DNA of 64,000 nucleotides from Candidatus Omnitrophota bacterium (lineage in GTDB: Bacteria > Omnitrophota > Gorgyraeia > Zapsychrales > JBAZNR01). Positions 21,001 to 60,700 of the stretch are shown piece after piece. Location: contig JBAZNR010000001.1 in NCBI GenBank assembly GCA_041649175.1, positions 322,332 through 386,331 of the forward strand, in the 5' to 3' direction. A program made the translations under genes and the position numbers. Every line of letters starts with the position of its first letter. The stretch's first letter is position 1. Under the pieces are notes generated by a model, which made no database searches, had not been told where the DNA came from, and was given only the letters and a program-made list of their open reading frames with translations.

Positions 21001-21719
21001 GTAACAATGATAGACTGGAATTTTCCGTCTTTAATATTGATGCCCAGTGTAAATAAATTGCTTTTCCCGTCCTGATCCTGCTTGGTCTGATAAAAATCAA
21101 TTTTGTAAGCATCAATGACCGCCAAAAGGTTTTCTAAAACTACCCCTTGCCCTAAGCGATGACGCAAAGCGCTTCTTATTTCTACCGTTATATCCGTCAT
21201 GAAGACAACTTTGACCGGACGGATCTTCTTTAAAGCAAGCTCCCAATCAAGTCTTGGATTTATTTTGTAACGTTCCTGGCTGAACAACAGAACCTCGATC
21301 GTATCCCTGAGGATATCTTGATGATCTGATAAATATTTAATGTCTTCTTGAATGATCTCTTCTTCGCTTAAATGGGGTTGAAGGATACGCGTTTTTTCAT
21401 GTTCGAGGAATCCTAAAACAGCGGCCGGGTGGTCTTTCATCAGCTCAAAAACTCTCCAGTGAATAAGCAAAGTCCCTTCGCTTTCGGAGACCATCATCGC
21501 CGGGCCGGGTAAAGCAACGATGACAATGCGAGTTAATTTCTTAGAAACAATAAGATTACCTAAGTATGGAACGATCTCTTCGACCTGCCCGTAGAGCTCT
21601 TCTTCTTCATCATGGGTGAGAAAGCCATTATGGATCTTAGAAATAAAAAACTTGCTCAGGACATTGGCAGATAAAAATACGGTGGGCCTTTCAATGGCGG
21701 CAAACTCGGCCGGATAAGC
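1..21719 (-). CDS. Segment C of the giant ORF: C-terminal side, 3' end beyond the window start. The first in-frame ATG is at 21495-21497, but protein-like sequence begins at 21719.
   Basis: Frame decoded at 57, 181, 541, 781, 2101-2340, 3181-3300, 7381, 8761, 9841, 10021, 10561, 12901, 15361, 20281-20460 and 21481-21719. Confidence 0.6.
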
Positions 21720-36700: not shown

Positions 36701-39700
36701 GAAGTTCTTGAGATTGTGACGGAATAAGATCCAACTGGGTCAGATCGATAAACAACTTTCCGGCAGGATTAAGCAATCGATATAATCTCTTGAGGACATC
36801 GATCTGGTCGGGGATATACGCTATAACGGCGCGCCCGACAATGATCATGTCAAATTTAGATTGCAACTCAGCAAATCCAACTTGTTTACTTACGTCAAGA
36901 ACGCGGTGATGACGATGGATCTGGTAAAAAACTCTCAAGGCAAAGGTTTCAAATCTTTCCCGGCTTGGATAAAAGACATCTTCTCCACTTTGCTCCAAAT
37001 ATTCAATAACGTGCGGTAGATCATACAAAAGCCCTTCTTCCTTGTTGATAGAGTGATACTCAAAAGCATCTCCATATTTTAAAATAAGATCAATAATGGC
37101 TCTGCCACGGCCTACTCCCACAAATAAAAGACGGAACTGGGTTTTGCGGCTTTCATAACGCTCTGATAACTCACCTAAAACCTCACGGACATGCGGAAAG
37201 TGTTGCTCGTAAATCTCTATTTGTTCGCTAAGATCACGATTAACATAATCTTCTCTTCCTTCATATGCCTGCGGAGCAGAAATTTGGACGTAAGTGTTGT
37301 GTTTTACTTCGGTCAAAGAGACATTTTCACTATCATCTTTAATTTGCGCGCGCACAAAACCAAAAAACGCAAAGAAAGAAGGTAAAAGAAAAGCGTTCAA
37401 GTCCTCTGACCGCGCTTCTTTAAACTCGATCAGCGAGGCATCGTAATCAGCGGGTTTTTCAAAGCCTAAAAGATTTAAGATGGTGGCGGCAATATTGGAA
37501 AGGCCGGTGTTTTCTACTTCGGTTAAGGAATATTCTCCGCTATATTGCGGATCAACGATAATGAACGGAACAGGATTAAGGGAGTGGCGGGTGCTGACGA
37601 CCTTGTTCCCTTTCTTATCGAGCGTAAACATCTCATCAGCATTGCCGTGATCGGCGGTTACGATGGTAATGCCGTTCAACGCGCTCACCGCGTCAATAAG
37701 CTCGGCCACACACTCATCAACCGTTTCCATCGTTTCAATGATCGCTTTTTCAACACCCGTGTGCCCGACCATATCGCCATTAGGAAAGTTAAGGCTGATA
37801 AATTTGTATTTTCCCGTCAATAAAAGTTCTTTTACCTTTTTGGTGATTTCATAAGCCTTCATGGCCGGCTTTTGGTCAAAAGTAATATCTTTATCCGACG
37901 CAATCTCAATATATAATTCCAAACCTTCATTGATATAGCCGGATCTATTGCCGTTCATAAAATAAGTTACATGGCCGTATTTTTGTGTTTCCGATATACG
38001 CACCGTTGTAACGCCGTTATCACAAAGATATTCTCCCAAGGTGCGGGAAATGGCAGGCGGAGCAACCAAATAATTTTGCGGAACCATCAGATCACCGTCA
38101 TAAAGCATCATGCCGGCATAAAGCACATCGGGGGTACGTTCGCGGTCAAATTCTTTAAAATCTTTCTCTCCAAAAGCGCGGGAAATTTCAATGGCACGGT
38201 CGCCGCGGAAATTAAAGAAAACAACCGAATCTCCGTCTTCGATCGTTCCCATCGGTTTTTCATTCTCGTCCACGATCACAAACGCAGGAAGATTTTGATC
38301 CTGTGCGTCTTTACCACTCGCCTCTTCGGCTTCCCTATATAATGTTTCAACAGCTTCTCGAACAGATCGAAACTTTCTGCCGCGCCCTAAAACATGCGTA
38401 TCCCAGCCGCGCTTGACCATATTCCAATTATCGTTATATCGGTCCATAGTGGTCGTCATTCTTCCGCCGCCCGAAGCGAACGCGTAATCAAAACCAAATT
38501 CATGATTGATCTGCGCGAAAAATTCTTCCGCTCTATCAACGTAGGTCAAAGCTGATTTTGGATGAACATCACGTCCGTCTAAAAGCGGATGAACTCTAAC
38601 GCGTTTGACACCCCTGTTGGCGGCTTCTTTAAGAAGAACAAAAAGATGATCAATATGCGCATGGACATTTCCGTCGGATAAAAGGCCGATAAAATGCATG
38701 GTTTGACCATCACGCTTCGCCCGTTCAATAAGATCATTCCAGATAGCCGTTGTGAAAATATCTCCGCTTTCGATGGCTTGATTGATCAGCTTAGCGCCCT
38801 GATCAAAAATACGTCCGGCTCCGATAGCGTTATGCCCGACTTCGCTATTTCCCATATTGCTGTCATCGGGAAGGCCGACAGCTGTGCCGTGCGCTTTGAG
38901 TTTTCTGAAAAACGGGCTTTTTAATAATGCATCCAGACGCGGCGTTTTTGCCAGATAAACTCCATCGGATTCATCATTGCTTCCTAAGCCAACTCCATCC
39001 ATGATAATAAACAAAAGCGGCCCCTGCCGCCCTGAGAATTCCTTCAGCCGCGGTAAAACAAGTTTTGTCTCTGAAACAGAGCCGATGAATGCCAGCGGCG
39101 CGAAGATAAATGGAACAACAAATCCCTGCAGATCTTGTTGGCTGTCTTCTGTATTCCTCCAATAGGAATTCCGGCCGTCAAACTGAAACGCGCTTAACCC
39201 TAAAGACGAGAATTCTTGATCTATTTTTGTCACACGAAATGAGATCGTCGAGCGTTTTAAAGGCGAAAGCCGCATCATATGCTGCGCGCCTACAGTCTTT
39301 TCCACAGCTTGAGAAACTAATTGCGATATTTCTTCCGTCGTATGCAATTTTCCGGAAACCCTCTGGATCGCCATCGTAACAATGTAGGCGAATAATGTTC
39401 CGTTTGTCTTAAGAAGACGGTACAAGTTATTAGCAACCGCTACTTGATCGCGGATATATTCCATCACCCAAGTTCCGATAACAATGAGATCAAAATCAGA
39501 AGGAAGTTCTCTTAGTTGGGCGGCGCTCGTAACATCAGCACGGTGGAAATTCTTGTGCAAGATTTCAAAAGCCTTCAAGACATTGGGATCGGTTAAATCC
39601 CTATCCATAAAGAATGAAACCTCGGGTAAATCATATAGAAGATTGCTTTCAACATTGATGGAGTAGTATTCAAACTTGTCACCGAATTGTTCGATAAGAT

Positions 39701-42700
39701 CAAGAATGACCCGCCCGCGTCCGGCGCCGACTAAAAGAATTTTTGGTTTATTCACACCATCTGAATTTTCTTTAAGTTCTACCAAATCTTGAAGCAATTG
39801 TTCTCTACCGGCATCATCACGATACAATTTGCTTAAGTCAAAAAGCCCGCGGTTGACAGCCCCTTCATCGCCGTACAGCGACGGAACAGGATGCGAAACA
39901 TATGTTTTTGGATTTACGACAACTCCCAAAGCTGAAATCGGCGCGAAGACGAACGGCAAAAGGAAGCTGTTCAGGATTTCTCTTGATTGTTCTCTATCGT
40001 CCGCCAGTGCGTCTAAAGAAGTAAGCGGCAATTCTCCCTCTTCGCCCCATTCGCTTTCATCCGGCAGCACATCGCTTCGGTCGGTATGCGAATGCGGGAA
40101 CATCACAATGAATTTTGTTCCAGCCTCATGTTTCAAAGAATCATCGGAAATCGGTTGAGGTTTTCCGAATTGCCCATTAACATAGTCCAAACGATAAGCA
40201 AGCTGGCCACTCACTCGGCTGATGACCGTGATAGTTCCGCCATACATATCCACAATATTTCTTACTTCGGCTAATCCAACGCCGCCACCGGCAAATTTTC
40301 TAAAAGCGCTCCCTTTTGTTTCGCAAACATAAAATACAGCTTCAAGCTTATCCGCCGGAATTCCTACCCCGTTATCTTCGATGGTGTAATAATAACCTCC
40401 ATCGCGATCCGCATAGTCTTGATAGATCAACCCTTCTTTTCTGTCTTCACCCGGAATATTGGGTAGATACACAACCGCATTCTTAAATAATTCTGTAAAG
40501 ACAATTTGGATCGTTAAGCCGAACACTCGACGATTCATAATAATTTGAGTATCTTGATGAACACGTGTAACACCGGAAATATCAATGTCTTCCTCTAATA
40601 AAAACGCCTCCTGAAAAGCTCTCCAGGGGTCAGTTTCCATTTCGAAACCAACGATCGTATCAAAACTTCCGTTATAAATAGCGCGAATGGCTGAGAATTG
40701 CCCTTCCATAAGGACAGGGACCATAAACTCAATAAGCCGTGCACTGTCAAAATCAATTTCATTCATGCGCTCTAATATTTCCTGTATCTTTGGCTCATGC
40801 GCTCTTTGCGCTAAAACCGCCGTGAATGTTCTGGTGACCATCACCGGGTATCGATTGCTGCCAAGGTCGCGATCTAAATCAAGGAATAGATCGGCTACCA
40901 ATTTTATAGCTTTTTGATATGCCATGTATTCCCGGCTATTGTGTAGCGCATAGGCTTCTTCAAAAGCATTGATAATGCGTGACTTCATAAGGCTAATGGC
41001 TGTAATACGGTCATTGAGGATATGCCCTTGGAATAAGGGGCTATCTTGTCCCAAGCGTGAATCTAATTCTCTTAAAAGCCGGGCAAACTCATTGAGGAAA
41101 AGATACAACTTATTCATAACTACCATGCCCATCTCAGCAATATTGACACGGTTTTCCTGAAGCGGATAAATGCGAAGATACATTTCCACAAAATCTCTCA
41201 TATTACGTATCCGCTTAGAACGCGGAGCGAGTATGACGCCAATACTAAATATTTTCTCATCAAAGATCTGCGGGACAGAAGTTTCATCTTGCCCTAAAAG
41301 AAACTCAGCCAAAAGAACATTACGAGTGCTTTCTTCCGGATTTCCCAAAGGCGGCCTCAAGCCTCCCATAATAACATCACGTTCAAAATCAAAAGTTGAC
41401 CCGCCTTCTTCCTGGCGCTTGGTTATTTCATGATAAGCGACATGCGCGTTTATGACTTCTCGTTCGCGCACTTGGAGGTTTTTAAGGATCAAGGCAAAAT
41501 TTGGTGACGAATCAACATGGGAAATTCTAATGAGCAAGTTGATCGCCTGGGAAAATTTTTCCGTCGTAGCGTCATTACGTCCAATAAAATTAGATAAAAA
41601 TGTAACGCCTTCTTGATTTAAGGACATTGACCTGAAAGCTAGCTCTGCTCTTTGTTGTATTCCTTCGGGAAGTTTACTCCTAACGAGTTCTCTTAATCCA
41701 AAATGCAAAGGCCTGTTAAGATGCCATCCTTGGATATTGTCTCTGAACAGCGCTTCGGGAATTTCTGTTTCAAGAACATCGCCTGTTTGTTCAATGCGAA
41801 CAACAACTTTCTCTAATTCGCTTTTGATCTGCTGAACTATCGCAGTGATATCATCACGCGTTAAAGATATTTCATCGGCCATATCCCAGATCTCATGGAT
41901 GCCTTCGGGCACAGGGACAAATATTTCTGACAACACGCTTGCCCTAAATTCCTCATCGTTTAAGAATTTTCTGAGTGACGCCTCTTCGCGGATCTCTTCG
42001 GCCAAAGCATAGACCAAGCGCAGCGCATCATCGTCGAGAACGATCAAAGAGAAATGTTTCTTAAGCTTTTCCGTAATAATTGCCAGGCCTTCCTCTTTGG
42101 ATCGGACGAGTCCAAAGATCATCGGAGCAAAGGGCAAGATAAAACTATTGGCAGTTTGCACGCCGTTTTGCGCCTTTCGGCGGTTAAATTCCTCAATGGC
42201 CGCAACCGCTTCCTGCGCGGAATCGACGATGGTATAAAGCGTTATATCTCCTTCAGAGACAACGCCGGATTTCACTAAGACTTCCTTAAAATACGTATCC
42301 CACGGCTGCCAAAATTCGCGGTCGATCAAAATAAGCGGCTTCTTTTCAACTTTACGTGTTTGCATCAAAACGATCGCTTCAAAAAGCATATCCATCGTTC
42401 CCATACCGCCGGGGAAGAAAATAAGTCCCTGGTCGCTGTGGCGCATAATGGCTACTTTTTGTAAGAACATATGCGAGAAACCCACGGATGTCCTTGCCCA
42501 GCTCAAATCGTCAAGGCCGTTTAAGCCTAATAAGATCAAACGCCCCGAATGATAAAACGCGTTTTTCTTTGCCGCTTCTTCAATGCCATCTTTGACCGCA
42601 ACACCAATGCCTTTATCGCTTCGCACAATGGTGGAGATATGTTTTTCCGCTAAGCGCCGGGCAAGGTCTCTGGCTAAGATATAATTCAGATCGGATTTGG

Positions 42701-45700
42701 ATGTTAAATGACCGCCCATAATTGTTATAACCCGTCCGGTATTGCTAAGCGCACCGGTTACTTCCGCAAACTCTCTTGCCACCGAGTCAAGGTCAAGCGG
42801 ATCCACAACACGATTGGGAGCCGCATTCACTAAAGCAACAAGGTCTCTTCCTCTATCTAGCATCTGCACTAATTGATGAGCCGGTTTCTTTAGAAATCCG
42901 CGGCGCTCCATATCATTAATGCGTTCCATTAAGGGGCCATAAAATGTTTTTCCATAGACAATAACGGGCATATCTTCCGGTAAAGCGCCGGAATCTTTAA
43001 GCGCTAATGTCTCAAAAAGCTCAGCCATAGTGCCAAAGCCACCGCGCATATGGACAATTGTTTTAGCTACTCTAAAAAAGGTCGTTTCCCGCGAGAAGAA
43101 ATAATCAAAAAATATCTGAATATTGGCAAAAGGATTGACGGCTTCCTCGAAAGGAAGCTTTATGGGCAGCGCGATGGAGTCATGCCCTGCGGCGGCCGCA
43201 CCCTTATTGCCCGCTTCCATAACGCCCGGCCCGCCGCCGGTGGTAACGGGGCTATTGAATAAAGCCGCGACCATTTCGACAAAACGATAATAATGGTGGC
43301 CTAATGTTCTGCGCGCCGAACCAAAAATAATATCGGTGGCGCCGATAATGTTTTGGTAGAACTTTTCAACACGAGATAATTCCGCGATGGCTTTATCTAA
43401 GAAATATAATCCGCGCTGAATTGCTTCGCGCTGTTCTTTTTCCCAGATGGCGAATTCCCGTTCGGCTTGTTCGTTTTCTTCGTGAGTAAGTCCGTGTAGT
43501 TCGTGATGCAGGGTGCGGGCGAGATAGTTATTAAGATTGGTAGCGATGAGGAAGGTCTTGTCATTATTGGCTCCATAAAAAACGCGCTTTTCGTCAGGCC
43601 CGGCGAGTAATTTTCCGGAGCGAATAAGCTGTAAGAGGCGCTGATAGCGAATTTCATCGCCTTTATATTGATAATAAACTAAGTTAACCTTCACCCAACC
43701 CGGCATGGCATCTTCGCTGACCGCGCTAAATCCCGGAAATCCCTTTGCCTTCAGTTCTTCAAATCTTCTTTCAGCATCTTGCCGTACATATCCTTCACGC
43801 GGTTTGGCGGGATCAAGCGGAGCATTGTCTATAGGTTTCGCCGGATACGTGTTATTAATAAATGCAAGTAGATCTCGAATGGGTTTCGGTAAAATGTCAT
43901 CAGATTTACTGCCCTCAGGTATTTTTTCTCTAAATAGTTCTGTCTGCCACCCAACAGTCCCTTCATTTTTATGCGTGGCAAACATCTCCGGGGTCATCTC
44001 CATAAGCCCGGCTAAAAAGATATAATTTTGGCCTCTAGAAAAATACCTCTTTATCAAAGGTGTTACTCCATAAACGTGAACAATATTGACAACGAGTTGG
44101 TTTAAGCGGTAAATATTATCGTTGTGTAGCTCATCACGCAGCGATCTTCCCTGCTCACGTAATTTAGAGGATCTAGAAATAAGGGCATCCGTGGCCTCTT
44201 GGGAACCGGAAATCCGCTCTCCCATGGAACTCGCTTCATCTACCAGCCTTGCGACTTCCTCAAGGTCATCATTGCTTAAAGCCTCATCCAAACGCGATGA
44301 AAGGAAGATAACAGAAATTTGCAACCGATGAGCTTCATCACTTAATTGATTTTCTTGTTCATTAAGATCATCAACTTCTTTTGTTTTCTTATTAATTTCA
44401 GTTACTAAATTTTTCATCCATCGGTATAAATCTTGCAAACTGAACCCTTTAGCTTGCAGCGCGCGTATTTTACCAAGGATCTCTCCGGCTTCTTTTTCCA
44501 TAGCCGCTTTGCGCTCATTTTCATTTTGCTCTAAACCGCCATTAACCAAACCAAGGATCCCGAAAGGCAATAACGCGATAAAGCTGTTTAATTGAATACT
44601 CCGGGTCACTTTATAGAGGTCTCCCTGCCCGGACACGTGATCAGCAAATTGGAAAGGAACTTCGGAAAGCAATTGATGCGTCGGCAGTGATTTAACCAAT
44701 CTGAAAGAAGCGTGATAATCATCCGGACGAAGAACATTGCCTGCGCCCAAAATTCGTGTTAGTTCACCGATGATAACATGGCTAGCTAAAACACCTTTTT
44801 CATAAGGCGATGCTAAACGAACGGACTCAAACTCCGTAACCAATTGCCCGCCCGGGACTAAAAGATCATATAAGTTAACATTCACTCTGATCTGATCAGG
44901 GATATACATAATGACCATACTTCCAACGATAACCAGGTCAAATTCACCTTGCGCCCTGACCTGCTCAAGGTTTCGCCCATAACTGATATTTAAAACAAAA
45001 TGATGTTGATGAATCTTTTCTAAAAGATCTTTTGTCATTTGCGGATCTTCTTTCAAATCTCGATGATTACGTTTTAAATAGCCGGACAAGCCATTAAAGT
45101 CAAACAACAAATTCTCTTCCCGATTGATGGAATATATTTCGAACTTACCGCTCTTTTTCAAAAGATCGATCGTAAGCCCACCGCGCCCAACTCCTACGAT
45201 GAGGATCTTGGCATTCGGCTTTTCACTAGCTAACACACTCAAAACCTTCTCTAAATCACCATGACGTATGGTCAAGTGACTTAATCCTCGAGAAATAAAC
45301 CCTTCCGCCGGATACCTCGCCGGAGGCGGGATCTGCCTATAATCGATGAGGCCGGAAGCGACTGTCCCAAATAAAAATAACGGCACAAAACATGCGCAGG
45401 AACTGATAGGCGCTGAAAGTTGTTTTCCTGTCTTACGCAAGATCGTGACCGATCCTTGTCCGTTATATTCTTCCCCTTGTTGCACAACTGTAAATACTCC
45501 TTGGGTTCTGATCTCTTCGGGAAGATGAGCAAAACCTATAAACCATCCGCCCTTTTTAAGGAGCTGATGGATTTTTTGCCAAGACCTTACAAGGTTGATA
45601 AATCCTTCTTCTTGCACATCGTTAAGTAAAACAGCGTGCGCGTAAATAAAATCAAAACTTGCGCTCTGCAGCCGAAGCTCTTCGACCGCGCTGCTGTAAA

Positions 45701-48700
45701 TCTTGATTTTTTGCCGGCTGCCGTCATATCGCGGGAACAATAGATCTTTGGCTAATCCGGTAAAATGGTTTATGGTAGGTTCAACGATAACCAAACGCCC
45801 TAACTCCGGAATTTCTTCCAAAAGCGCTGAAACTTCCCAATCGGTTTGCCCCGGGCCGATCTCAAGCAGTGTTTTTTCGGAGAATTGAACTGATTTACTC
45901 TTTAAAAGAGCAACGCTGTCTCTGACGGCGTCCCTTATGTCAGCACGAGTAACATGCCAATGGCGCTGAACCCGATTAAAAGGAACTTGATCAAAGATGT
46001 GAACATATTTGCGATGCCCCGCAATGATCCTATTTTCTCGAGGAGTAATAACCGTATGGGGATTTTCAAAACGTATTTCATAAGTCCAGTGGGGAGAAAG
46101 ACGATTTAAATACTCCATCGCTCTGTCGCGGCTGACCAGCCAGGCTTCTTTAGGGAAATTGCTCGTAGATGTATTGACAACTTCCCCAAACAATACCGGC
46201 AACACAAACGGCGCAAAACCAAATCCGGCAAAGGCGGATAATGTTTCGCGCGAGTCTGTTGAGCGCGTCCTGTCATCGGAGACGCGGAACACAAGCTCAT
46301 AACCTATCTCGCCTGTTCTTAAAAGCAGGTCACGAACAACCAATGTATCGACATCAACGGCAATGATCGGTTTTAAATCGCGAAAAACTAATCTCTTGTT
46401 AATGCTGCGTCCAATGGCGGCCGATATAATTTTATAAGAAGAACGGGCCATTTCGCCGTCAAAGAATTGAAATATTTCCATTGTGACACGTTCTTCTTCT
46501 TGTTGGGCTAAACCACTTTCCAAAGATCCAGAAACAAAGTTGACGGATAAGCCTTCACTTGTTAAGGCCATCAACTCAGCTATATCGCTATCCGCCTGCG
46601 GGTCTATAGCGCGAGATAATTTATCAAAATCAATCTTTATAATCCCCAGCGGATACTGATTGATCATAACCAAACCATATTCGCCATGAGTTATCCGGCT
46701 TTCAAAAAGTTCGTCTAAAAGACGTTGGTCTCCGGCCGTAACATGTTGGAATAAGGCAAAGCGAATTTGCTGAGATTCGAATGGAAATACAATGGCCTGA
46801 TCGGTCAAGTAACGTAAGGCAAATTCTTTTCCAAAAAGCTCTCTGCTGGGCGAGCCTGCGCTAGGATTAACACTACCAAACAATACCGGCACAAACCCAA
46901 ATCCGACAAAGGCGGGAAGCGCTTGGCTTCCCGATAAATATTCATACGTTTCACGGCCGGTTTCGTGTTCAACAAACTTAAACGGCAAGTCATCAAGAAC
47001 AAAAGCTCCGGGCTCTTTTTTCATCATCAGGCTAACCCATCCTTGAAAATTATTATCAGTATCAATGCGAATAATATTTTCCGGTCTTAAACGATACTGG
47101 ATTTCGTTGATCACCATAGATTGGGCAAGGCGGCCTGAAGTATTTTGAGACGTAAAATCAATTTGATTAAATCCACTAAATAAATATCCTCCCGGACGAA
47201 GTAAATGATAGAGGGCTCTGTTGACCGCAATTTGATCGGGGATATAGGATAAAACACAATATCCCATAATGATCAAATCAAAGTTTCCTTCAATTCTTTC
47301 GAGGTTTTTTCCGTAACTTATATCCATCACATAATGATGCTGATGTAAACGGGCAAGAAGGTCATCCATATTAGAAAATGGATGAGAAAAATAATCGTAC
47401 CGTTGATGCTCAAAATATTCTTTTAAATGGGCAAGATCAAATAAAAGCCCTTCTTCCAGATTGATGGAATGATATTCAAAATCATACCCTTCTTCTAAAA
47501 GTTCAATGATACTAACCCCGCGCCCAACGCCAACGATAAGAACTTTAGGCATTGTTCCTTGTTCTCGATGTTGCCGTAATAACATTGTCAGAGCCCCCGT
47601 AAACCAACGCTTTTTGTCAGAATAAAGCTCGTGCAAAGACGCAACCCCGCGGCTCACCGCGTCTTCGCCGATCCGCTTCGCATAATTCTCAGGGACAGGT
47701 ATTTGACGATAAGATGCTAGTGTATTCCCCATGCTATCAACCAATCCAATGATTACCGGCACAAATCCAAATCCGGCGAAGGCGGAAAGTACGCCAACAG
47801 TTCCAGCGGTTGTCCGAGCGCCTTCAAAAGCCGCCGCGCGCAATTTATCCGCGTCGAGCTTGCGCAGATCAATATAGATCTTTCCGTATGTTTCTTTGTG
47901 ATCGGTTTTTCTGATCCGGTAAAGCCTTCCCGACTTCTTCCATAAAGAAAGGGTTTCAGCAAAGAACCTGGCGCCATCGGGCAAGGTCAGAGTTGAGCTA
48001 ACAGATGTAAAGCCTCGGCCTTTGACCCAGAAAAGAAGAATAGCTAAAGCGGTTTCGGAATACTGCGCCCGTTGATCTTTGTTCATAATACTGAAGATCA
48101 ACCTCGTAATACGTGTTCCCTTAGATTCAATGGCGAACACAATAGCGCCCTTGTCGGTTGTTATTTGCCCGTGAAGAATATTATCGCTGTTTTCTTCGAT
48201 ATGAAGCGAATCAACGATATCCTCTAAAGATGTCCCTGAAATCCACTCTCGGTATAAAGCCTTTTCTAATTCAAAGAGGTTTGGCGTAGCGGCAACCAGA
48301 AGGCTCGACACACCAAATCCGGCGAAAGCATGAACGGACACAGAGGCTTGTGAACCCGAAGAAACCGTTTTCTCGACGGGTAAAATAAATAATCCTTCCA
48401 AGCGCTTTACAACATCATTCATCGTTTTGGGCTTACGTTTTTTCCGATTTTCCTGCGACATCTGTTGGATAAGCAAGGAAATCCCGCTAATGCCGGCAAT
48501 GTCATCATCCATTTCCAGGACGAAATCGATCACTTTCGCGAAACTATAAATGTCAGATGCAAAAAATCTTTTGGTTTCCGGCGCGGAAAAACCATTTGAT
48601 CCACCTTTCATCGGCCGGCCCTTGCGTACGGACAAACCAAAATCAACGATCATCACTTCTTTAGCTGCGTTCACTAGAATATTGTCCGGCTTAATGTCGC

Positions 48701-51700
48701 CATGAACCCATCCGGCTTTATGGATACGCGCCAAGATCTTAGCGGCTTTGATGAGAATATCCATTTTGTCTTTGGCGCTAAAGTTAAGGAAAAGTTCTGA
48801 ATCTAAATCGTAGCCGTTAGAAATTCCTTTAAGCTTGATCCAGAAATTCCCTGATTTATCATTGCCCGCCGAAATAATTTGCGGAATTCCCTCTTTAACA
48901 CCACGCCTGCTTAGATCACGTAAGACAAGAACTTCATCTGTATTAAGATCGTGGGCTACACCGGAATTCGCGGTTACCTTATAAAAGACAGCTGAATCTT
49001 GCGGGTCTTGATAAATATTAGAGAAGCTGCCATTGCCCAAAACAATTGCAACGGGAATATCTTGCCCTGCGGAAATTTGAGCAGAAGTTGCTTCGGTCCC
49101 AATGCCGGTTTTTGGTAATAGGCTTTCATCGAATACGACTTGCCCTGGTAAAGCTGGGACATCGCCCCAGATAGACACATCCAATAGATGATCATCAGAA
49201 ATAGAAGAGGCCGCTTGATGATTAAACTTTTTCCACCAGCCACGGTAGGCGAAAAGTCTCAAGCGGCCTTTTAAACCAATCCAAGATAATTGTAAATTTA
49301 AACTCAAGAATCTTAATCTGCTTTGAACAGATTCAAACCATTTCTTGATCTCTTGACGATAAATCCATCCAAAAACCGCTATGCCGATACCAGGAATAAA
49401 AACCAACAGATGAAGCGGCACTAAAAAGACAAAGAGCTGATTTTCATGTTCACGATCTGTGCTAGCAGCCGCTAATCCATTCGGAGAGCCTGCTGGTAAG
49501 CGCCTGCCTATATTTTCTTCATCAGCAACAAAAGCAACCACACCACCTTGCTGATCTCTAACCGTCCTAAACCCGGAATACTCTTCTTGACCTGTCAGAT
49601 CAATCCAAGATTGCCATCCATCAAACCGCTTGATCCCCTGAGCACCGAAATTAGGACGATAAAAATTCCTGAGCAGCCCTTCCGTAGTCCATATGCTCGC
49701 CGTCGTTGCTTGATGACGTTCTCGGCCAATGGTCAGCGCCGCGGCTATAAGGACCCGGCTTAAAATACGTAATCCTTGTTTTCCTTTATTGCGATAATCA
49801 GGATGAACGAAAAGCCCGTCTCCTTCTTGAGAATACCTTAAGTCATTTTCCCGAAGGAAAATAATGCCATAACGCCTAAGGTTTTTCTCTGCTTCTTTAT
49901 TAAAACCGATATTATTAGAATTCCTATCAGCCGCTTCAAACAACATTTTACGTCCTCTATCCTTAGATGACGGATAGACCGCAAAATCCAAATACGCGAT
50001 GTGACGTTTTTTGCTTAGATCAAAAGTGTCTAATAAATAGTAGGCATTGCTCACCGTTGACACCACAGCAGCGCGCAAAGTAAAGAGAATTGTATTTTTC
50101 CCTGAACGATAAACCGTCCATCCTTGCTTGATAAGTTCGTCAAAATTTAAAACACCCTCCGGCCTTTTAACCATACCCAAGGCCACCAACCCAAATACCG
50201 GAAAGATCATGCTATGGAGAAGCTGCATTTTTTTGGCCTCGGAAACACCTTGATCGGACTCAAGCCGGTAGAAGTAAATCCCGGAAGCCTGGCTGGAAAG
50301 ACCGAGAGAAACGGTGTGGCGCCCGATAGAACGTATTCCAAGGTCAACATGCTGAACTTCGCGGCCTAAAACATCAAAGACCTTTAAAACAATTTTACGC
50401 GGCCGGTCTAATTCAAATTCAATAGTTGTTTGTCCGTTGAACGGATTGGGATAATTTTGTTTTAATTGGAAGCTTTGTGCTATCGGATGGAGAGGGTCGA
50501 CCGCTGTCGTCCCGGAAAGAGAATCAGCCATATTGATAATATCGTCTGCGGTCATTTCGTCGGTTACAGAAAACGCGGTCGCATCAAAATGAGTATCCAG
50601 CCACTGACGATCGTCATCGGAAATCGGACGCGTGTGCACATTAATGCCGATAAAATCATACCCTGTTGAGAACGGGCCGATCAAAGCCACGTTAAAGCGA
50701 TAGACTGTATTTCCGTCAATAACAACATAATTTCTTTCAACCGTATACGTGGTATCTAATCCGGCAACCGCGCTATCAAAGGCGGCATATGTCGCATCAA
50801 GATCGACATTCGTTAAAGAAGCCATCGTATTGTCGATCCAGTTATTGTATTGCGTGTATTCTGTATACGCAGGTATTTCAAAAGAAGCAACTCCTTCAGA
50901 TTGAAACATCAGAGCAAGTAATTGCGGGCTAAGATCGCGCTCTTCATCGTGAAAAGCAACCCAGGTTGTATCAACCCCAATACCATTTTGGCCCTGCCCG
51001 GCAAAAGCAGGAGTGAATGCAGTCGGAGAATTCGGCGGAGGAGGAATGTAAAGATATTCTAAAAGAAGTCCTTGCAGATCAAGATAATAATCCCTTAGAC
51101 GAAAATACATATAACGCTCACGCGTTGTCACGTCAAGCTCGTCCAAGGTGTGACGAGGTTCTTTAGTGACAACAGGCGGAGCGCGCGGATCATAAATTTC
51201 ATATTGTCCGTTAGATAAGATCTTAATATCACCAGAAGCAAGTGCCGCGCGCCAAGGCAAGACAACAAAGAATGCCATCATCATGCCGACAAATAACGTC
51301 ATAAATTTTCGCACAATGGGGCGCGTGATCGCTTGATTGATAGACGTTATGACCCCTTTGGGATCAGAAGGCAACATTTGCGCCCTTGAAAACGTTTTCT
51401 TATTTTGAAAAATAAATCCATCTTTTTTAAGATGTGAATAATAGAGCCCGGCAAAAACCGCTAATCCAACGATGGGAACAAAGATAAAAGGCGTGATGGA
51501 TAATAATTTATCTGTTCTTGTTCCGCCGATATGGTTGAGCGCTTTAAATTCTTGAGGCCGTTCGATATCAACGGTAACAATACCTTCGATATTTCTCACC
51601 AACGTATCAACAATTTCTTTATTGGTCACATAGTTAAATCCGGATAATCTAAAGACCAAAGTCCCTTCGCTGGGCTCACCGACCGGAACATCAACGCTTT

Positions 51701-54700
51701 CCACGTGCGCGACCAGCGGATTATCCTTAGCCACTAAAAGTTCTCCGATGCGCTTGGCAATGCCCGGAATATTTTTTACTAAAACTTTAACCGTAATACT
51801 AATACGTCCTGCCACATAGGCATAAACCGTAGCGGCGTCAACTAGCCCAAGGCCGATCGCTAAATGCAACTCATCGCGGTCAAATTGCGAAAAGCGCTTC
51901 GGAGAAAAACGAGCCGGAAGAAGAGATATGGACTTATCCGGGCCTACGAAAAGGCCCATCTTTTCTGTAAATTCATTGATCAGCCTATAGGTCGCTTCTG
52001 TCATTCCTACCTTAGAAAATTCTTCTTTCAAGCGCCGTTCGCCCTCACGAATAAGAGCTAATTTGAATTCATCGGCAGTCATTTTTCTTTTCTGCCCCTT
52101 GGTCATAAATTTCCGGACAAAATCTTCATTTTCAAACCTTGTTATTAACTCTAAGGATAGCCGTGTGCGCAAAAGCTTGGCCAGCGAAATAAGCCCTTTG
52201 TCTTTGATATTCTTGGCAGAAATAGCAAAACCGGTGATCTTATGGCTAAGCGCATTTTGAAAGATCATACCTGTTTCTAATGGAGTATTTTCCAAAATAG
52301 CGCGAGATAGCGGTGTCGCCGGAGAAACCGCATCCAATAAGGCATCATCAAAGATCATAAAACCTTGATACCCTTCATCAAGGCCAAGTTCGGGATAATA
52401 CGCCAGATCAAGCGCGACAGCTCCTTGGGGAAGCTCAGTCACCAAAAGGCTTGATCCGGATTTTCGGTCTCTTTCCTTTAGGAATCCGACATAAATATTC
52501 CCGTTTAATGAGTTGTAGATCAGGTTCAAATTATCCCTCGGGTCTTCGGTGAGCATAATAGCGTCGGAGATCAGTTCTTGATTGATCTTTTGGCTTTTTA
52601 AAAACCCTTCTAATTTAAATAACCAATGAGGCTTGACCGCTTCACTGCCGATGCCATAACGATAGCGCCGGTAATCCTGATGGCTCATGATCTGCAGCTC
52701 CCAAGGACGGATGCGCATATCCTCTTTAAATTCCACCACGTCCGTAAAATCAACGTGAATAGCGTAATAACCTTTTCGTTTAAACTCCGCATTCTCGGCT
52801 TTGCCTTTTAGCTCCCAACTTAATTTTCCAAAGGCTTTATCAGGGTCACTTACTAAAACCATGACCCCTAAAAGATCGGGCAGTTCGGCTAAAGCACTAC
52901 GGCTTGAGCGGGAAGAATGGATCTTTTCATAAATAGCGGCAATGCTTTTAGCTCGCACCATAACGATCACGCTATCATCGCCATCTTCCCTGATAAGAGC
53001 CTCGAAACGTCTTTTCACTTCGTCTAAAATAGCTTCAATATCGCCATAATTTTCCACGCCTAAATAGTCGGCAACAGCCGCCTTTGTTTCCTGATATTCT
53101 TTAGGCATGGTGATCATCATGACTCTGTTTTGCAAACCAATGACCATGCGGGGAAAATCAATACGGTCGGCCAGCGGAATAAAGATGTGTTCTATTTTCT
53201 TAAGCATCGCTTCTTTTTTATTCTTAGCATCTTCAGCCTGGCGGCTGTCTTTGCGGGCTTCGGCTTCTTTTTCCCTAACGGCGGCCAAACCGGCAGAAAT
53301 AATAAGATCGGCCGCCGCTAACATCAAGACCCTGATCCGGCCGTCGGTCAATCGGATGACCATATTCATATAATATTGGACAGCCCATCTTCCTGCCAGC
53401 GCGCGGACCACTTGATTTAAATACGGAAGATTGATGATCTCACGGCTGCGCTTTATGGTAGGGCCGATCACTTTTAGATCTTCTGCCCTTGAGGGGAATT
53501 GGGCGGTTAACTGTTCTATGACCTCACGTCGGGTCCTTTCCGAAATATGCCAAGAATGAAGAAGCCCGGCAATGATCGTCGTATCCACGCCTAGCCAACG
53601 GGCTAAAACATAAGCCACATCTAATCCGTGCTGCATAATGCCTTCGGCGGTGTTGAAGCGTTCATCTAAAGAAGAAAGAGGAGTCGCTTTTAGTTTTTCT
53701 AATACAATGCGATAAGCTTGTTCAATGATGCGCGCATCAGCATTAGGATAATTGTTTTTAAAGGCACCGGTAACGTCGGATAATTCCATATTTCCTTCCC
53801 CATACGGAAAATCCGCCACAATGCCGAAAACCGACAAACCAAAAGGAGAGAAGATAAATGAGCTGAGCTTCGTTTCTCCTGTTTCTGCTATTTCAGCCGG
53901 CTTAGATACTTCTTCGACCAGTTTTATCGGCGTAACAGCTGCCATCGTCTCCACAGGCTTATGGTTCGGCTTTCCTGACCTTTTTGTCATACTGCGATCG
54001 GTAAAGTGAACAACGATCAAATAAACGATCATCCCGCCGATCATAGTCGCTAAGAACTTTGTCGTGCTCACATGATAGGAGCGGGCATACGCAGCTGCAA
54101 AGGCGGGAGAAGTAAGAATAAAGCTTAAAATTAAGGCGATCATTCCACTCGGTAAAATAGCGTTAAGGACTGTTTCGTTACTTTCTCCATCGACGGCGGA
54201 ATTATTTTCCCCTGAGATTTTGATCTGATAAACTTCGCTGTTTTCCATGCTTAAGAAAGGACCCATATCTTGGCTGACAAGCTTAATTCCCGGGAAACGC
54301 GTTAGCAAAAGATGCCTGGTCGCCTCGGTGGTGACCACCATCGTAAAAATTCCTCCCTTAAAATGAGTCTTTACAAAATCCGCAAAGAAGTCGAAGACGC
54401 GCGACGCGAATCCTTGTCCGGCAAGGCTTCTATGAAGAGCAATGCTGCCGGAATCAATGTCGATCCGCCCGCTATCATGCCGCTTAACACTGAACTCTCT
54501 TAAGAATAAAACACTGCCATCACCTTCATAAACATGGCTGTAATAATGAACAGCGTTTTCTGTCTCGAGGTAGCGATTTCGATTAACATTCGATCTCCCT
54601 CTGCCTTGATACGGCTCAAAAAGAGCAGATTTTTTAACAACAATGAAGCGATAGCTTGTAATTTCATCCCGCTCATCGATAACAGAAGCATAAACATATT

Positions 54701-57700
54701 CATCTTCTACCTGGCCAGCCAAAGTAGACAGTTGCGCTTTCCAGTTCGAGTAAAATACTTTTTCTCTCTTAACCCCATACACATGAATAATAGACAGCGG
54801 TTTACCGCCATTTATTTCTTCTAATTTTTCTTTAAGCGGGCCGAGCCATTCCATATTTAAAAAACCAATCGGCAAAGAAACAAATAAGGCATAAAGTTTC
54901 CGCTGCGAAGACTGTTCAAATTGATCAGGATTAGCGGCTTTAACCATTCCAATAAAATGTTCCCTGCCAAGATCTCGTGACCGCAAGAAAGAAAGATCAA
55001 TGCGATTGTGGCTTATTCCGTTAAGTCCGTACAAGCGCAACAAGGCGTTGGCAATATTCATATATATCGAATTGTTAACTTGCCTAAATAACCAGCTTGA
55101 GTAAAGGTTTGTAACGACGTCAACGGCGATCACTTCAACCGCGGCTTCCAAATTTTGACTTTCCGGTGCAATATTCATTAGTTTTCGTAAGCCAGCTAAA
55201 ACACGTCCTAATTGTTGCTCGATGACCTCATGCTCCTGGATAAATTCTCCGGCAACATCTCTCATGTCGGCTTCGTTGTAATGCTTAACTCGGTAAACGG
55301 TATTGCCGTCTTCGCCTAAGATCATGGTCGTATTAAGTTTAAGCATAAGCTCGACGATGTCTTTTAAGCTTTTGAGTTCAATATTGCGTAAGAATTCTAC
55401 GAAGATCCGGCGAACCGCAAAATTATTTTTCAGGTAATTTTTTTGATTTTCCGTTTTTGGAAAAGGATGTTCCTCTGGGTATCTGACCATCTCAACCCAA
55501 GGAGATACCAGGCTATAAGTCCAATTTAATTGGGCGACAAAACCGAAAACTCCAGAAATACCAAATCCCGGGACAAAGGCATTGATTGGGCTCGCTCCTT
55601 GAACATCTTCCCCGTTTTCATCGAAGGCGATCCGAATTAATCTTGCTTCTGTGTCTATAAAAACAACATCATTTCTATAACGGATACTGCCATTGACCTT
55701 TGCGTACAGCCGTTCGGCTTCTTGATCATGATGATTATGGCGCGCGATAGCCGCCAAGATCTCAATTTCGCTTCTGTGGCGTTCGTTAAACTTCTCATCA
55801 TCAGAATTTCCAAAGCGCTTCAAATATTCGGATAAAAATTCTAAGATATTCTTCGCGCGAGTCGTTCCGACAACTTCCGCCATACCGCTTAATAACCAGC
55901 CGACATAATCATATATATTGCTGTACGGCTGTTCATCATCTTCCAAGGAAACCGAACTATAATCCAAAAGCACAATAAGAAATTCGAGTTTTTCTGTTTC
56001 CTGCAAATTAAACATGATGCTGGGATCTAAAACTAAACGATTAAAGTTAAAGTCCATCCAAACCTTATCGGTTGTTGGCATATTCGCTAAATAATAACCG
56101 TCAAACTCTCCTGATAACATGGCTAATCTCATCCAAGCCTCGGCGTAATGAACGATCATCATCTTAATATTGAGAGGATTACGATGGGTAAATTGCGCCG
56201 GATATTGATACAACATTTGTAAATTGGAAAATCCGTTGCGGCTTTCATGCAGATAAATTCCGGTATTGTTTTCTAATGTAAAAGCACCTGGCTTAAGGAA
56301 AAATCGATAACCTAAACGATGCTCTTCATTGACCGCTTCAATGGTTTCAAAAAGGCGAGAAATATCCTCGGCTGGCATGGCAAGTTGCTGCTTGGAAATC
56401 GCATAAATACCTAAATGATAAACCTTCATTCTGTTCTGGTAAGGCAATTTGGCCGTTAACGATAAGGGGAGCTTTCCTTCTTCTCGGGCAACGCGCTCCA
56501 TACGAGCAAGTGATTCACTGCCTTCGGTAGCCGACTGCACGGTGATAACAGCGCCTTCGGGGATTTGTCCGTCAGATAAGATCTCTTTAATGAAATGATC
56601 ATCACTAAAAACATTGAGAAGCGCTCGGGCTAAAAAGTTTGTTTCGCCTAATTGGCTGGATAAAGCGCGGCGCACGCGGTTACGGATAGGCGCGGGGATA
56701 AAATTGTTAGGATCAATAAATTGAAGGCCTCTAAAATCAAATGTGGATTCTTGCGAGAAAACGGTTCCCCATATTCCAAAAAATAAAAACATAAGAGGCG
56801 CAAACGAATGAAGTTTTTGAGTTTTTTCTCTGTATCCGACGGCACCAGTATTGTCTAAAGCGCTTTCAAATAATAATCCGTATTTTTGGATCATAACCGC
56901 AATGTCAACTTTTTGATGCGCGCCGATAAAAGCTTGTTTCATTCCATCGATCCATAACGTTGACCGGCCTGCATGGTATTGACGATATGAAGTTATTGCT
57001 TCTGTTAAATGTTGGGCTAATTGCAACATACCTTGTTCTTCGAAGGTGCGAATGATATTTCCGTCCCCGGATTCAAAGCGGCGGACAACATCTTCAAAAT
57101 TCCATCCCTTGAACACATCTAAAAACCATCCTGTTTGACCGTGAATAATATATTCAAGCGGCCCGCCGGTAGCTGTTGCGATATTGTAATGGCCATTAAA
57201 AGCCGCACGCTGGTCGCTGGTGCCGCAGGCTTCTCTGGTGGGGCGCGGCATACTGACCCAAACATCACTGGCGGCAATAGCCTTTTGCATAAAATCAATG
57301 CCGCTTTCGGAAACGAAAACAAATTTACCCTTTAGTGCGGGATCTTCCATCATGGACCTGAATTGCCAAACCCAATGACGCCCGATATCATCCAAGCCGC
57401 GCCCGCCGATAAGAACATTAGCCCCTAATCCCGGTTTTTCTCCCCACGGCGTTTGATACATTTGATCGGGCTCCCCGGTGATCCATTTGATCAGAGGAAT
57501 GATGATGCCTTGTTCTTTGTAAGCCACTAAACGGCGCACCAAACCGACCAAAGGACGGCTTGTGTCGTTAAAGGTGAATTCTGCGCCAAAATTTTCACTC
57601 ATAAAATCATTAAGGACGCTCTTTTGTCTTTGACCGATCTCAAAGAGTTTTTGTCCGGAAATATTTTCTAAAGAATCCAGCTCTTTAACATATTCTCTTA

Positions 57701-60700
57701 AATCGCCGGAATACCAAAGGGTGGGGTCTGAGCCGTTAACGATCCCGACGATCTTTTCTTTAAATTCTGGGAGGACAACGATCTTTGTGATTTCGGCGTG
57801 TTCTTCGGCAACGCCGTTGATGACATTGGCCATGCGCGCCAAACCAATAGCCGCGTGGGCAACATAACCATCGGCAACAACTTCTCTGGCTCCATCCCAA
57901 TCGCGGATCAGATCCGGCCCTAATAAGGTTTTAAGCCACTGGGCCGGCCAAGAAGGAAGCGCCGCGCGTTCGGGAGTGTGAGTAGTCATTACAATTTTTG
58001 TTTTATCAAAAATACTTTTCTGGTTTTGGCTATTGAACCAGTCAATATCATTTTTCATAGCGGTCGCCACAAAAACCAATTGTGGTTCATTGAGCCGCGC
58101 GACATTGGGGTGGATCTCTAATTGCTTCATTAATTCCACATAGGCGCGGGCAAAAAAGCCGAATTGGCGCGTCTGGCGTTCATCGCCGGGATACAGGCGG
58201 TTGAAGATAGAATCTTCGCCTAAATGGCGGATCAAGAATATCGGAATACCATTACGATTGATCCAATAAACCTGTACGGTATTATGCGGATGATGATTGA
58301 AATCAACACTAAAGGTAAGCGGCACGAGTTGATTGCGGTTATCTAAGATCACCACCGGTTTGATGCCGGATTCATTTTGCCAATTGATCTGGACACGGCT
58401 TCCCTGCGCGTCGTAATAACCTTCGTAAAGCGGCATCACGCCGATAGCGGAGAATTTTTTCAAGAGATGATATGCACCCCAGGTTTCGCCGGTTAAAAAT
58501 CCAAGCCCGCCGGCGGCTAGGGCTTTTTGAGCCAGGCCTTTTAATTCCGGTAAGAAGGCTTCCAGGGAAACATCGGTCACGATCGGTTTGCCGGATGTTC
58601 TGATGCTATTTAACATCGGCCCCAGCGTGTCATCGGCGATAACAAAACCAAATATTCCAAATCCAAAAAAGCTTGGAGTAAAACTGAAAAGTCCCGTTCT
58701 TTCGCCTGTGGATAACTCATTAGGGACGTTTCTGTTCTGTATCTCAGAACTGTCCCTTTGAGCTATAGCCTGTGAATTCGGGGACAGTTCTGAGCGCTGC
58801 GGCAGAAACGTCCCTAAATCTAAAATAGACCGTATTAATGATTTGCCCGTAATGCGTTTAATGGCCGGCCCGTCTGTTTTTATGGAACAGCCCAGTAATT
58901 CTGATAAATGGAAGAATGTTTGAATACCAATTAATATTTTGAGAGAAACTGAATTAACAAAGAATATCGTGATGCCGCCGGCAACAAAAAGGAAGTGAGT
59001 GGCCAGCGGCGCAAATAACACAATGAGGCGTTGAGAATCAGTCGCACGTTCGCTTCTGTGGTGCCGCACATTATATCGGCTCATCAACCATGCCGGAATG
59101 ATGTGCATCAAGGCATGAATAACGGGAACGCTAAACGTAGTAGCGGCAACAACGGCGCTCATCATGGTGATGCGCGATAAATCCAACGCTATTCCAATGT
59201 TATCTTCGATTTTTAACGCGATGAAAGAAGCAAAAATAGAGTAAACGAAGTATAGTAAAGACCCAAAGCCGATATCTTGTTTCTGCCAGTAATGATCACT
59301 GATAAATCCATTTTTGTTAAGCCCTAAGAGCTGACTTTTAATATATTTGAATATGTTTTGGATTCCCAAGCCAAAAACAATCGGGCCAAAAGCGAAAAGC
59401 TTTGAAGTGCGTCCGACTTCTGCCGTAACTTTCTCAACTAGATTTTTTTGCTCAACGGAGACAACGCCGAAACGCTCGGAAGAGTTCGGGATCCAGCCAT
59501 GAGAAAAATCAGTTGTCACGACAACCGTTGGAGTTTTGACTAAGTAAGCGGCGTGAACAATAGCTGTATCGATGGTCACCACTTGGTTAACTTGGCGTAA
59601 AAGCTCAATAGTGGCCGCGCGGCTTTCCCAGTCGGTGTTGACTTGGCGGCTGATATCCCAAAGCTTTACGTTAGGGTGTTGCGAAAATCCTTCGATCAAA
59701 TATCTTAAACGCGCCGAAACCACATTTTCAATATTGGTATTAACGATCACCGTGAAGCCTTTTTGCAAAAGCTGTTCAATGATCCCGGCCCAATTTTGCC
59801 TGGATGAATCTTCGGATGATGTACTAGCTAAGAAGTTAACGAAAATAACCGGCGATGTAGAGGAAATACTGTTTCCGGTAAAGAAATCCCGAACGATTTT
59901 CTGAGTTTGAGAGAAGCTCGGCAGAATATCTGTTTCGCTGGGAAGCTCAAATCCATATTCTAATAAAGCGGCGCGAATACCCACATGAGCATCTAATCTG
60001 CCCCATGTTTGACCGCTTAAAATATTGATCACATTACCGCCGTAAATATCAATGCCATGCATATTGATAACCATGTCGTACAACGGGAAGATCACGTCAC
60101 GTAATGTCGATATCTGATAAAGGCTAGGCATATCAAGCTGGGCAAAACGAGCTGTCTTGTGATCGTTTAATTCTCGATAGGGATCCTCCATGCCGTTTAA
60201 ACTCAAGGCAAAGATGCTCAAATTCTCTAAATTCGGGAAATTATGCGAAAGTGTTTTTGCGATGATCGGTAAGTAAGCCAACATCTTTCCCCATGTTCCG
60301 GTCCCGGCATAAATGAAGACTCTTTTTACTTTTGAGAAATCTAAGCTTCGCACTTCTTCTGCTCTCGGCGTTAAATCTCCGTTATTGAATAATGATTGGG
60401 ATCTGGAATCTCCCTGCGTCGCTACAAAGCCAAAAACCGCCACAGGAACAAACGCGAAGCTGTGAAGAGCGCTGACACTAGAATTTGAAATAAAGGCTGC
60501 TGCCGGGTGATTCCCCAATCCAGCCACGGAAAGATTGGAATCATTTTTATTCGCCGGCAGCAGCCCAATATTTTTATTCGCTAAACGCCATACGCTATAC
60601 GCTGAGCCTTTAACTCTGTCCCCTATTTTTACAAACCAATCTCTAAGCAAAGAAACGATTCCGGAAATTCCTAACCCCAGCACAAACGCGGCGAGGTTTT

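Follow-up and report, generated by a model that had tools for sequence, protein, structure and literature searches.

Why does a domain that normally ends a protein lie deep inside one? This question is raised by a type IX secretion system (T9SS) C-terminal sorting domain (CTD), which is encoded in a stretch of 64,000 nucleotides (hereafter the window) from contig JBAZNR010000001.1 of the Candidatus Omnitrophota assembly GCA_041649175.1, positions 322,332 to 386,331. The original prediction, made from the letters of this DNA, placed the CTD at window 50200-50459 and proposed either that it was a relic of a fused gene or that it became functional once the module upstream of it had been released by proteolysis. 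Our analysis indicates that the CTD is probably the last domain of a complete gene of T9SS-cargo type that was taken up, in frame, by a giant modular gene.

The minus strand of the window carries a stop-free frame of 21,332 codons (window 3..63998), which is open at both window ends and represents a fragment of a giant gene. This frame contains 0 stops, compared with 943-1643 in each of the five other frames, and profile scans detected domains along the full length of the open reading frame (ORF), all of them in this one frame. The Pfam and NCBIfam scans revealed more than 20 distinct families over its at least 21,332 amino acids (aa). Residues are numbered along the minus-strand frame, with the first codon at window position 63998, and all features given below lie on the minus strand unless another strand is named.

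We located an intact T9SS type A CTD at aa 4508-4595 (window 50214-50477), as shown by hidden Markov models (HMMs), homologues and AlphaFold2. The domain had thus been recognized correctly in the original prediction, with limits that deviate by no more than about 20 bases at each end. The TIGR04183 search proposed at that time gave a match of 42.2 bits, where 23 is the cut-off; E was 5.7e-11 for an 89-aa piece and 1.4e-8 within a 5000-aa chunk. The Pfam family PF18962 matched at 34.9 bits (cut-off 27). The NYPNPF motif occurs once in the whole ORF, at aa 4515, and motif and homologue-profile searches of the ORF found this one CTD and no second copy. When aa 4501-5421 were used as the query against 5.8 billion proteins, 892 CTD homologues were recovered at E<=1e-3, the best with E 2e-16. 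The 120 listed of these 892 are all ordinary proteins of 500-1600 aa, and all align solely to the CTD stretch of about 90 aa, with identity up to 55%. Among the matches listed, the homologues with a named source belong to Ignavibacteriota, KSB1, Zixibacteria, Marinimicrobia, Chloroherpeton and Bacteroidota, and thus to the FCB group. Judged from these sequence scores, the similarity of the CTD is far beyond chance.

We aligned the window CTD with 24 homologues and found no notable indel, with 13 of 13 invariant columns kept. Its mean identity to the homologues was 45%, compared with 52% among the homologues themselves, and a profile of 124 homologue CTDs scored it at 108.9 bits, which is low but within the range of the homologues (99.5-144.6). 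In 113 of 128 alignment rows, covering 124 CTD homologues, the match ended no more than 5 residues from the C-terminus of the homologue, and the final residue of the homologues aligned to H4595. Homologues typically finish with KKMxLLK and a stop; the window CTD keeps KKMQLL and then has H in place of the final K/R. An AlphaFold2 model of aa 4222-4625, with homologues supplied as alignment rows, presented the CTD as a seven-strand sandwich with a predicted local distance difference test score (pLDDT) of 90-97. A Foldseek search against the PDB matched the CTD to Ig-like sandwiches, including chain D of the T9SS extended-translocon structure 8gl8 (75 residues; TM 0.67, root-mean-square deviation 3.1 Å). 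The fold is a generic one, for which Foldseek gave many unrelated sandwiches.

Compared with the type A CTDs of FCB cargo, for which Ignavibacteriota, KSB1, Zixibacteria, Marinimicrobia, Chlorobiota and Bacteroidota served as the range of comparison, the window CTD is alike in the motifs NYPNPF, FDVLGREV, SGIYFYRL and KKMxLL, in its length of about 88 aa, in its 7-strand Ig-like sandwich and in having a signal-peptide-like leader upstream. It differs in that it is not terminal in its polypeptide, at least 16,737 more codons following in frame; moreover, the leader is internal in the giant ORF but N-terminal in cargo, and the last K/R is H. The CTDs of PorU, PorZ and PorA stay after secretion, so that a CTD can persist as a folded domain (PMC11285876). 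However, those CTDs remain at the true C-terminus with no more than 1-3 extra residues, whereas the window CTD is internal.

The region upstream of the CTD was then described from its N-terminal border onwards. This border is a degenerate junction, J' (aa 4153-4187, window 51438..51542; ALNHIGGTRTDKLLSITPFIFVPIVGLAVFAGLYY), which reads ALNHIGG...PFIFVPIVGLAVFAG and contains a Kyte-Doolittle segment of 2.34; it resembles the LNAF...FGxV junction consensus described below by eye and has no junction-HMM score. It is followed by a basic linker (aa 4188-4225, window 51324..51437) with 7 K/R against 2 D/E, or 9 K/R when RPIVRKF is counted, and by a signal-peptide-like segment, RPIVRKF / MTLFVGMMMAFFVVLPW / RAALA (aa 4226-4254, window 51237..51323), with a predicted cut before SGD. 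Inspected by eye, this segment has the layout of a Sec signal peptide: a basic n-region is followed by an h-region of 17 residues and by an AxA site. AlphaFold2 modelled the segment as a helix (pLDDT ~84). A crude signal-peptide regular expression run over the 21,332 aa returned aa 4226-4254 as its sole clean match, the other match, at aa 13675, sitting on a junction motif. The two hydrophobic segments, J' and the leader, are situated roughly 290 aa upstream of the CTD. A passenger of 253 aa (aa 4255-4507, window 50478..51236) connects the leader-like segment with the CTD; a search of 1.84 billion representative proteins gave 0 homologues for it, and Pfam gave no family at E<=1. Its AlphaFold2 model has a pLDDT mostly below 50, with one short confident beta-sheet (model residues 198-237), and was too poor for a meaningful fold search.

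On its other side, the CTD runs straight into a junction (aa 4593-4610, window 50169..50222; LLHSMIFPVFGLVALGMV, then KRPEG), which overlaps the last CTD strand. The residues directly after H4595 are SMIFPVFGLVALGMV-KRPEG, with no linker between CTD and junction, and the boundary as a whole reads ...MQLLHSMIFPVFGLVALGMVK. This junction was matched by the junction HMM at aa 4577-4611 (18.0 bits) and appeared in the AlphaFold2 model as a weak helix with a pLDDT of 50-69. The CTD ends at the stop site of its homologues, a junction adjoins it without a linker and a leader lies upstream; therefore, the module of 408 aa at aa 4188-4595 has, as far as its sequence goes, the full layout of a T9SS cargo precursor. 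The same features give good support to the part of the original prediction that derived the CTD from a fused gene.

We also characterized the modules on either side. A canonical junction (aa 3362-3397, window 53808..53915; ...LSSFIFSPFGLSVFGIVADF; junction HMM 24.9 bits) precedes a RelA/SpoT-like module with HD_4 and RelA_SpoT domains (aa 3398-4152, window 51543..53807), which is matched by TIGR00691 at aa 3455-3867 (36 bits) and weakly by Pfam, and which represents a cytoplasmic enzyme type. The original prediction had the upstream module as the unit to be released. This needs correction, as the large upstream module is RelA/SpoT-like and the unit whose release would be required is the separate module of 408 aa, with J' on its N-terminal side. 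Past the CTD, the frame stays open as predicted, through the junction and into a downstream module (aa 4611-5388, window 47835..50168) in which Pfam recognized a weak GNAT-like region and a Ser/Thr kinase (aa 4987-5142, window 48573-49040). The next canonical junction closes this module (aa 5389-5423, window 47730..47834; ...LSAFAGFGFVPVIIGLV; junction HMM 18.7 bits). A second weak RelA/SpoT-like region was observed far downstream, at about aa 17737-17888 (window 9000-11000), adjoining an inositol-monophosphatase/CysQ-like module.

The cargo-like module lies at the 71st percentile of the ORF in codon usage and at the 29th percentile in GC content at third codon positions (GC3), and its overall GC content is likewise typical. 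Recent horizontal transfer of the module was rejected as detectable, since GC, GC3 and codon usage are those of the ORF.

Elsewhere in the ORF, modules with strong family matches are whole proteins. AceK (window 31551-33299) matched NF002804 over positions 6-578 of 582 with 603.5 bits (cut-off 488), and iPGM (window 37437-39017) matched TIGR01307 over positions 3-500 of 504 with 425 bits (cut-off 331). A PRPP synthetase (window 27516-28457; TIGR01251 positions 3-297 of 309), a LOG-family module (window 42825-43328; TIGR00730 positions 5-176 of 178) and an ECF sigma factor (window 3207-3806; TIGR02937 positions 3-159 of 165) all scored above their cut-offs. Pfam gave equivalent matches for these modules. 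The iPGM and AceK modules fill the space between their mapped flanking junctions, and an asparaginase domain begins at profile position 1 about 10 residues past a junction. The iPGM module also weakly matched the iPGM domains of three long proteins, one of which, with 27% identity, is labelled Candidatus Omnitrophota; the junction motif was absent from all three. In addition, four paralogous methyltransferase modules (window 46854-47846, 44523-45446, 39069-40031 and 36354-37466) share 31-41% identity in pairwise BLAST. Their alignment spans the whole interval between junctions and has 50 invariant columns, which include the motifs GxGRG and FE[YI][HY]SINxE. This alignment indicates that the junction-bounded module is the unit of duplication. 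Profile scans with the methyltransferase paralogues yielded no confirmed locus in genome, metagenome or viral contig collections. Seen against these other modules, which correspond to whole proteins, the CTD, whose end coincides with a junction, stands at the C-terminus of a module and not at that of the translation product.

The junctions, which separate the modules of the ORF, share a consensus that consists of a polar linker, LNAF (or LSAF, LNSF or LNAV), 3-12 mostly hydrophobic residues often with P/G, FG[FLTIV]V and a second polar stretch. A profile built from 26 instances found 42 sites in the ORF, 25 of them at >=13 bits, and 0 in 20 shuffled controls. An independently written regular expression found 16 sites, where 0.16 were expected. 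Examples lie at window 53808-53915, 47730-47834, 37335-37439, 31479-31589 and 3969-4076. The conserved residues are encoded by six Leu codons, four Ala codons, four Gly codons and both AGY and TCN Ser codons, and this synonymous variety indicates that the constraint acts at the protein level and that the motif is neither a recent DNA repeat nor an RNA signal. An RNA-level explanation, such as a ribozyme or a recoding signal, was ruled out by the synonymous variation together with the lack of any Rfam match in the window. The uncharged cores of the junctions measure 13-35 aa, or 13-22 aa where the motif is tight, and are rich in G, P and F. We also considered whether the junctions are ordinary alternating transmembrane helices. 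This is doubtful, given that a positive-inside signature is missing, that AlphaFold2 gives them no structure in the methyltransferase module, and that single junctions separate a methyltransferase, iPGM and another methyltransferase, which are enzymes needing cytoplasmic substrates.

Taken as an origin, the capture of a whole cargo gene in frame is likely. The captured gene would have encoded a passenger of about 253 aa, preceded by a signal-peptide-like leader and followed by a type A CTD. It would have joined an ORF that may be understood as a string of whole proteins, in which one conserved hydrophobic junction took the place of each set of ancestral stop codon, intergenic region and start codon. 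The source was presumably a free-standing cargo gene, either from an FCB-type lineage or from a T9SS regulon of the host's own, and the module appears to have been resident long enough to take on the codon usage of the ORF.

The present state of the module follows less directly from the sequence. A CTD that is covalently tethered cannot serve as a classical T9SS export signal. CTDs of Porphyromonas gingivalis tolerate short C-terminal extensions of 6-8 His (PMC11285876), and this demonstrated tolerance concerns 6-8 added histidines and not thousands of residues. A CTD tethered in a membrane loop could not be pulled through an outer-membrane translocon. Most likely, at lower confidence than the origin, the module now forms an external loop. 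The h-region of the leader would insert from inside to outside and the junction after the CTD would return from outside to inside. The passenger and the folded Ig-like CTD would thereby be exposed at the outer surface of the cytoplasmic membrane, while the RelA/SpoT-like module before them and the GNAT/kinase module after them would be cytoplasmic.

Several observations weigh against this picture of a captured gene that is now displayed as a loop. The junctions neither alternate nor display a positive-inside bias, the uncharged stretch of the one that follows the CTD is only about 15 residues long, and AlphaFold2 predicts junctions to be coil or weak helix, with no structure in the case of the methyltransferase module; together, these features make the in-out-in loop uncertain. 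The leader was called by inspection and a crude regular expression, not by a trained predictor. Protein searches with aa 3398-4640, aa 4501-5421 and aa 8286-10851 gave only CTD matches or ordinary iPGM matches, and as no orthologue or other relative of the giant gene was recovered, there was no comparison from which to read the history of the insertion or selection on the CTD. Finally, the intact CTD and the ameliorated codon usage hint at continued selection, which would agree more with a working signal than with the passive relic that had been proposed.

A working signal is the core of the alternative that survives best, in which the product is a polyprotein cut at or near the junctions. The 408-aa module would then be exported by Sec via its own leader and afterwards across the outer membrane by a T9SS that recognizes a CTD which had become terminal. 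We regard this as unlikely. Several findings speak for it. Proteins such as a full-length ECF sigma factor, AceK, iPGM and PRPP synthetase, each matched end to end, would scarcely be able to function as tethered parts of a chain exceeding 21,000 aa, which argues for release; indeed, a sigma factor and glycolytic and regulatory enzymes in one such chain are hard to reconcile with function in the tethered state. Leader and CTD are both intact and the codon usage of the module is native, as under selection, and a recurring motif is present between the functional units. As in RNA-virus polyproteins, whole functional units stand in series with a short recurring motif between them, which we take as an analogy only. 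RNA-virus polyproteins are cut at conserved junction sites, but no protease was found in the window, where scans of all 21,332 aa with Pfam (E<=0.01) and NCBIfam (E<=0.001) gave no peptidase domain. To our knowledge, the junction, an island of hydrophobic sequence in which G, P and F abound, also resembles no known cleavage or protease recognition site. The tolerance of P. gingivalis CTDs for added histidines mentioned above counts in favour of this explanation; against it, T9SS genes have been reported from FCB phyla only (PMC11285876), and a giant architecture of this kind has been described for Omnitrophota only. West-Roberts et al. 2023 raised the cleavage of giant products as an open question and stated that missing information on cleavage points had blocked their analysis (10.1101/2023.11.21.568195). 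The wider proposal, that the giant ORF as a whole is a bacterial polyprotein in which the LNAF...FGxV junctions are processing sites and the released modules are sorted individually, seems quite unlikely to us.

Domain shuffling alone could also have placed the CTD here. The Por_Secre_tail domain would have been recruited as a structural spacer or binding domain, without ever having belonged to a whole cargo gene, and the hydrophobic segment upstream would be just another membrane segment. The generic Ig-like sandwich, with its many unrelated Foldseek matches, agrees with such a recruitment, and so do the passenger, which has no homologue that ties it to known cargo, and the abundance of hydrophobic segments in giants of this type (59 hydrophobic 19-mers in this ORF, or one per ~360 aa). 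However, the domain ends precisely at the canonical C-terminus and directly adjoins a junction, the upstream segment combines a basic n-region with an h-region of 17 residues and an AxA site in a form that is near-unique in the ORF, and strong family matches elsewhere in the ORF cover entire proteins. We therefore consider shuffling alone very unlikely. An artefact, whether because a stop codon was lost, because the assembly was joined chimerically or because the CTD model was matched by chance, is extremely improbable: although a 40-mer of the CTD had no exact match in genome, metagenome and viral contig collections and no independent sequence was available for comparison, one frame, and no other, has 0 stops over 64 kb, what comes after the CTD stays in frame and obeys the junction grammar seen at about 40 other sites, with regular junctions on both sides, neither composition nor codon usage breaks at the CTD boundary, and the E-values exclude chance.

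We also compared the ORF with known giant proteins, using Nielsen & Lui 2026 (10.64898/2026.06.07.730766) and West-Roberts et al. 2023 (10.1101/2023.11.21.568195). The 'multi-enzyme metabolic cluster' giants of Omnitrophota (class Gorgyraeia) contain many Pfam families, led by methyltransferase, HATPase_c, GNAT, HD and PF08323, and a transmembrane helix is predicted in them about every 370-1000 residues (10.64898/2026.06.07.730766). The ORF architecture resembles these proteins: it exceeds 10,000 aa, is tiled by many enzyme Pfam families with none dominant, and includes methyltransferase, HATPase_c, GNAT, HD and the starch-synthase family PF08323, in sequences that are largely orphan. The density of hydrophobic segments is also close, at one per ~360 aa here and ~370 in their densest case. 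The difference lies in the CTD and the junctions, as these papers (10.64898/2026.06.07.730766, 10.1101/2023.11.21.568195) mention neither a T9SS CTD nor a junction motif, and PF18962 and T9SS are likewise unmentioned in both papers and in the text of a supplement.

The CTD domain itself and giant multi-enzyme genes of tens of thousands of codons were already known. A complete cargo-type unit with intact sorting signals, lying between conserved junctions of a giant gene, appears to be undescribed. Its position exactly between two junction copies indicates that the junctions truly mark the borders of what were once complete genes, and the module provides a direct handle, in the form of a testable marker, on whether giant products act as one chain or are cut. 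If the polyprotein explanation were true, the intact sorting signals would provide evidence from sequence, the first of its kind, for the cutting of giants into working proteins, the junctions would constitute a cleavage map, and a Sec/T9SS cargo would arise from the interior of a precursor exceeding 21,000 aa. For the T9SS field, the locus is a naturally occurring example in which a fully conserved CTD carries a C-terminal extension of very great length, and if the host lies outside the FCB group, the CTD would also have been kept without the machinery that reads it.

Further features of the ORF were recorded. No other sorting signals, such as PEP-CTERM, LPXTG and similar, were found by NCBIfam across the ORF. 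Cysteine is very scarce, with 24 of 21,332 residues (0.11%). Two clusters of 7-8 close-set strong hydrophobic segments each, at aa 724-952 (window 61143-61829) and aa 10856-11155 (window 30534-31433), look like true polytopic membrane domains, in contrast to the single junction islands. Apart from the giant frame, the window contains a single ORF that reaches 150 aa; it measures 156 aa, lies antisense within the giant frame on the plus strand (window 18697-19167) and is probably spurious. Local tandem duplicates were also observed. The segments at aa 11376-11416 and 11606-11643 (window 29751-29873 and 29070-29183) are 63% identical, and those at aa 12497-12638 and 12666-12810 (window 26085-26510 and 25569-26003) are 32% identical. 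Further local pairs were seen at aa 14596-14694 and 14710-14807 (window ~19575-20213) and at aa 20691-20814 and 20846-20968 (window ~1095-1926).

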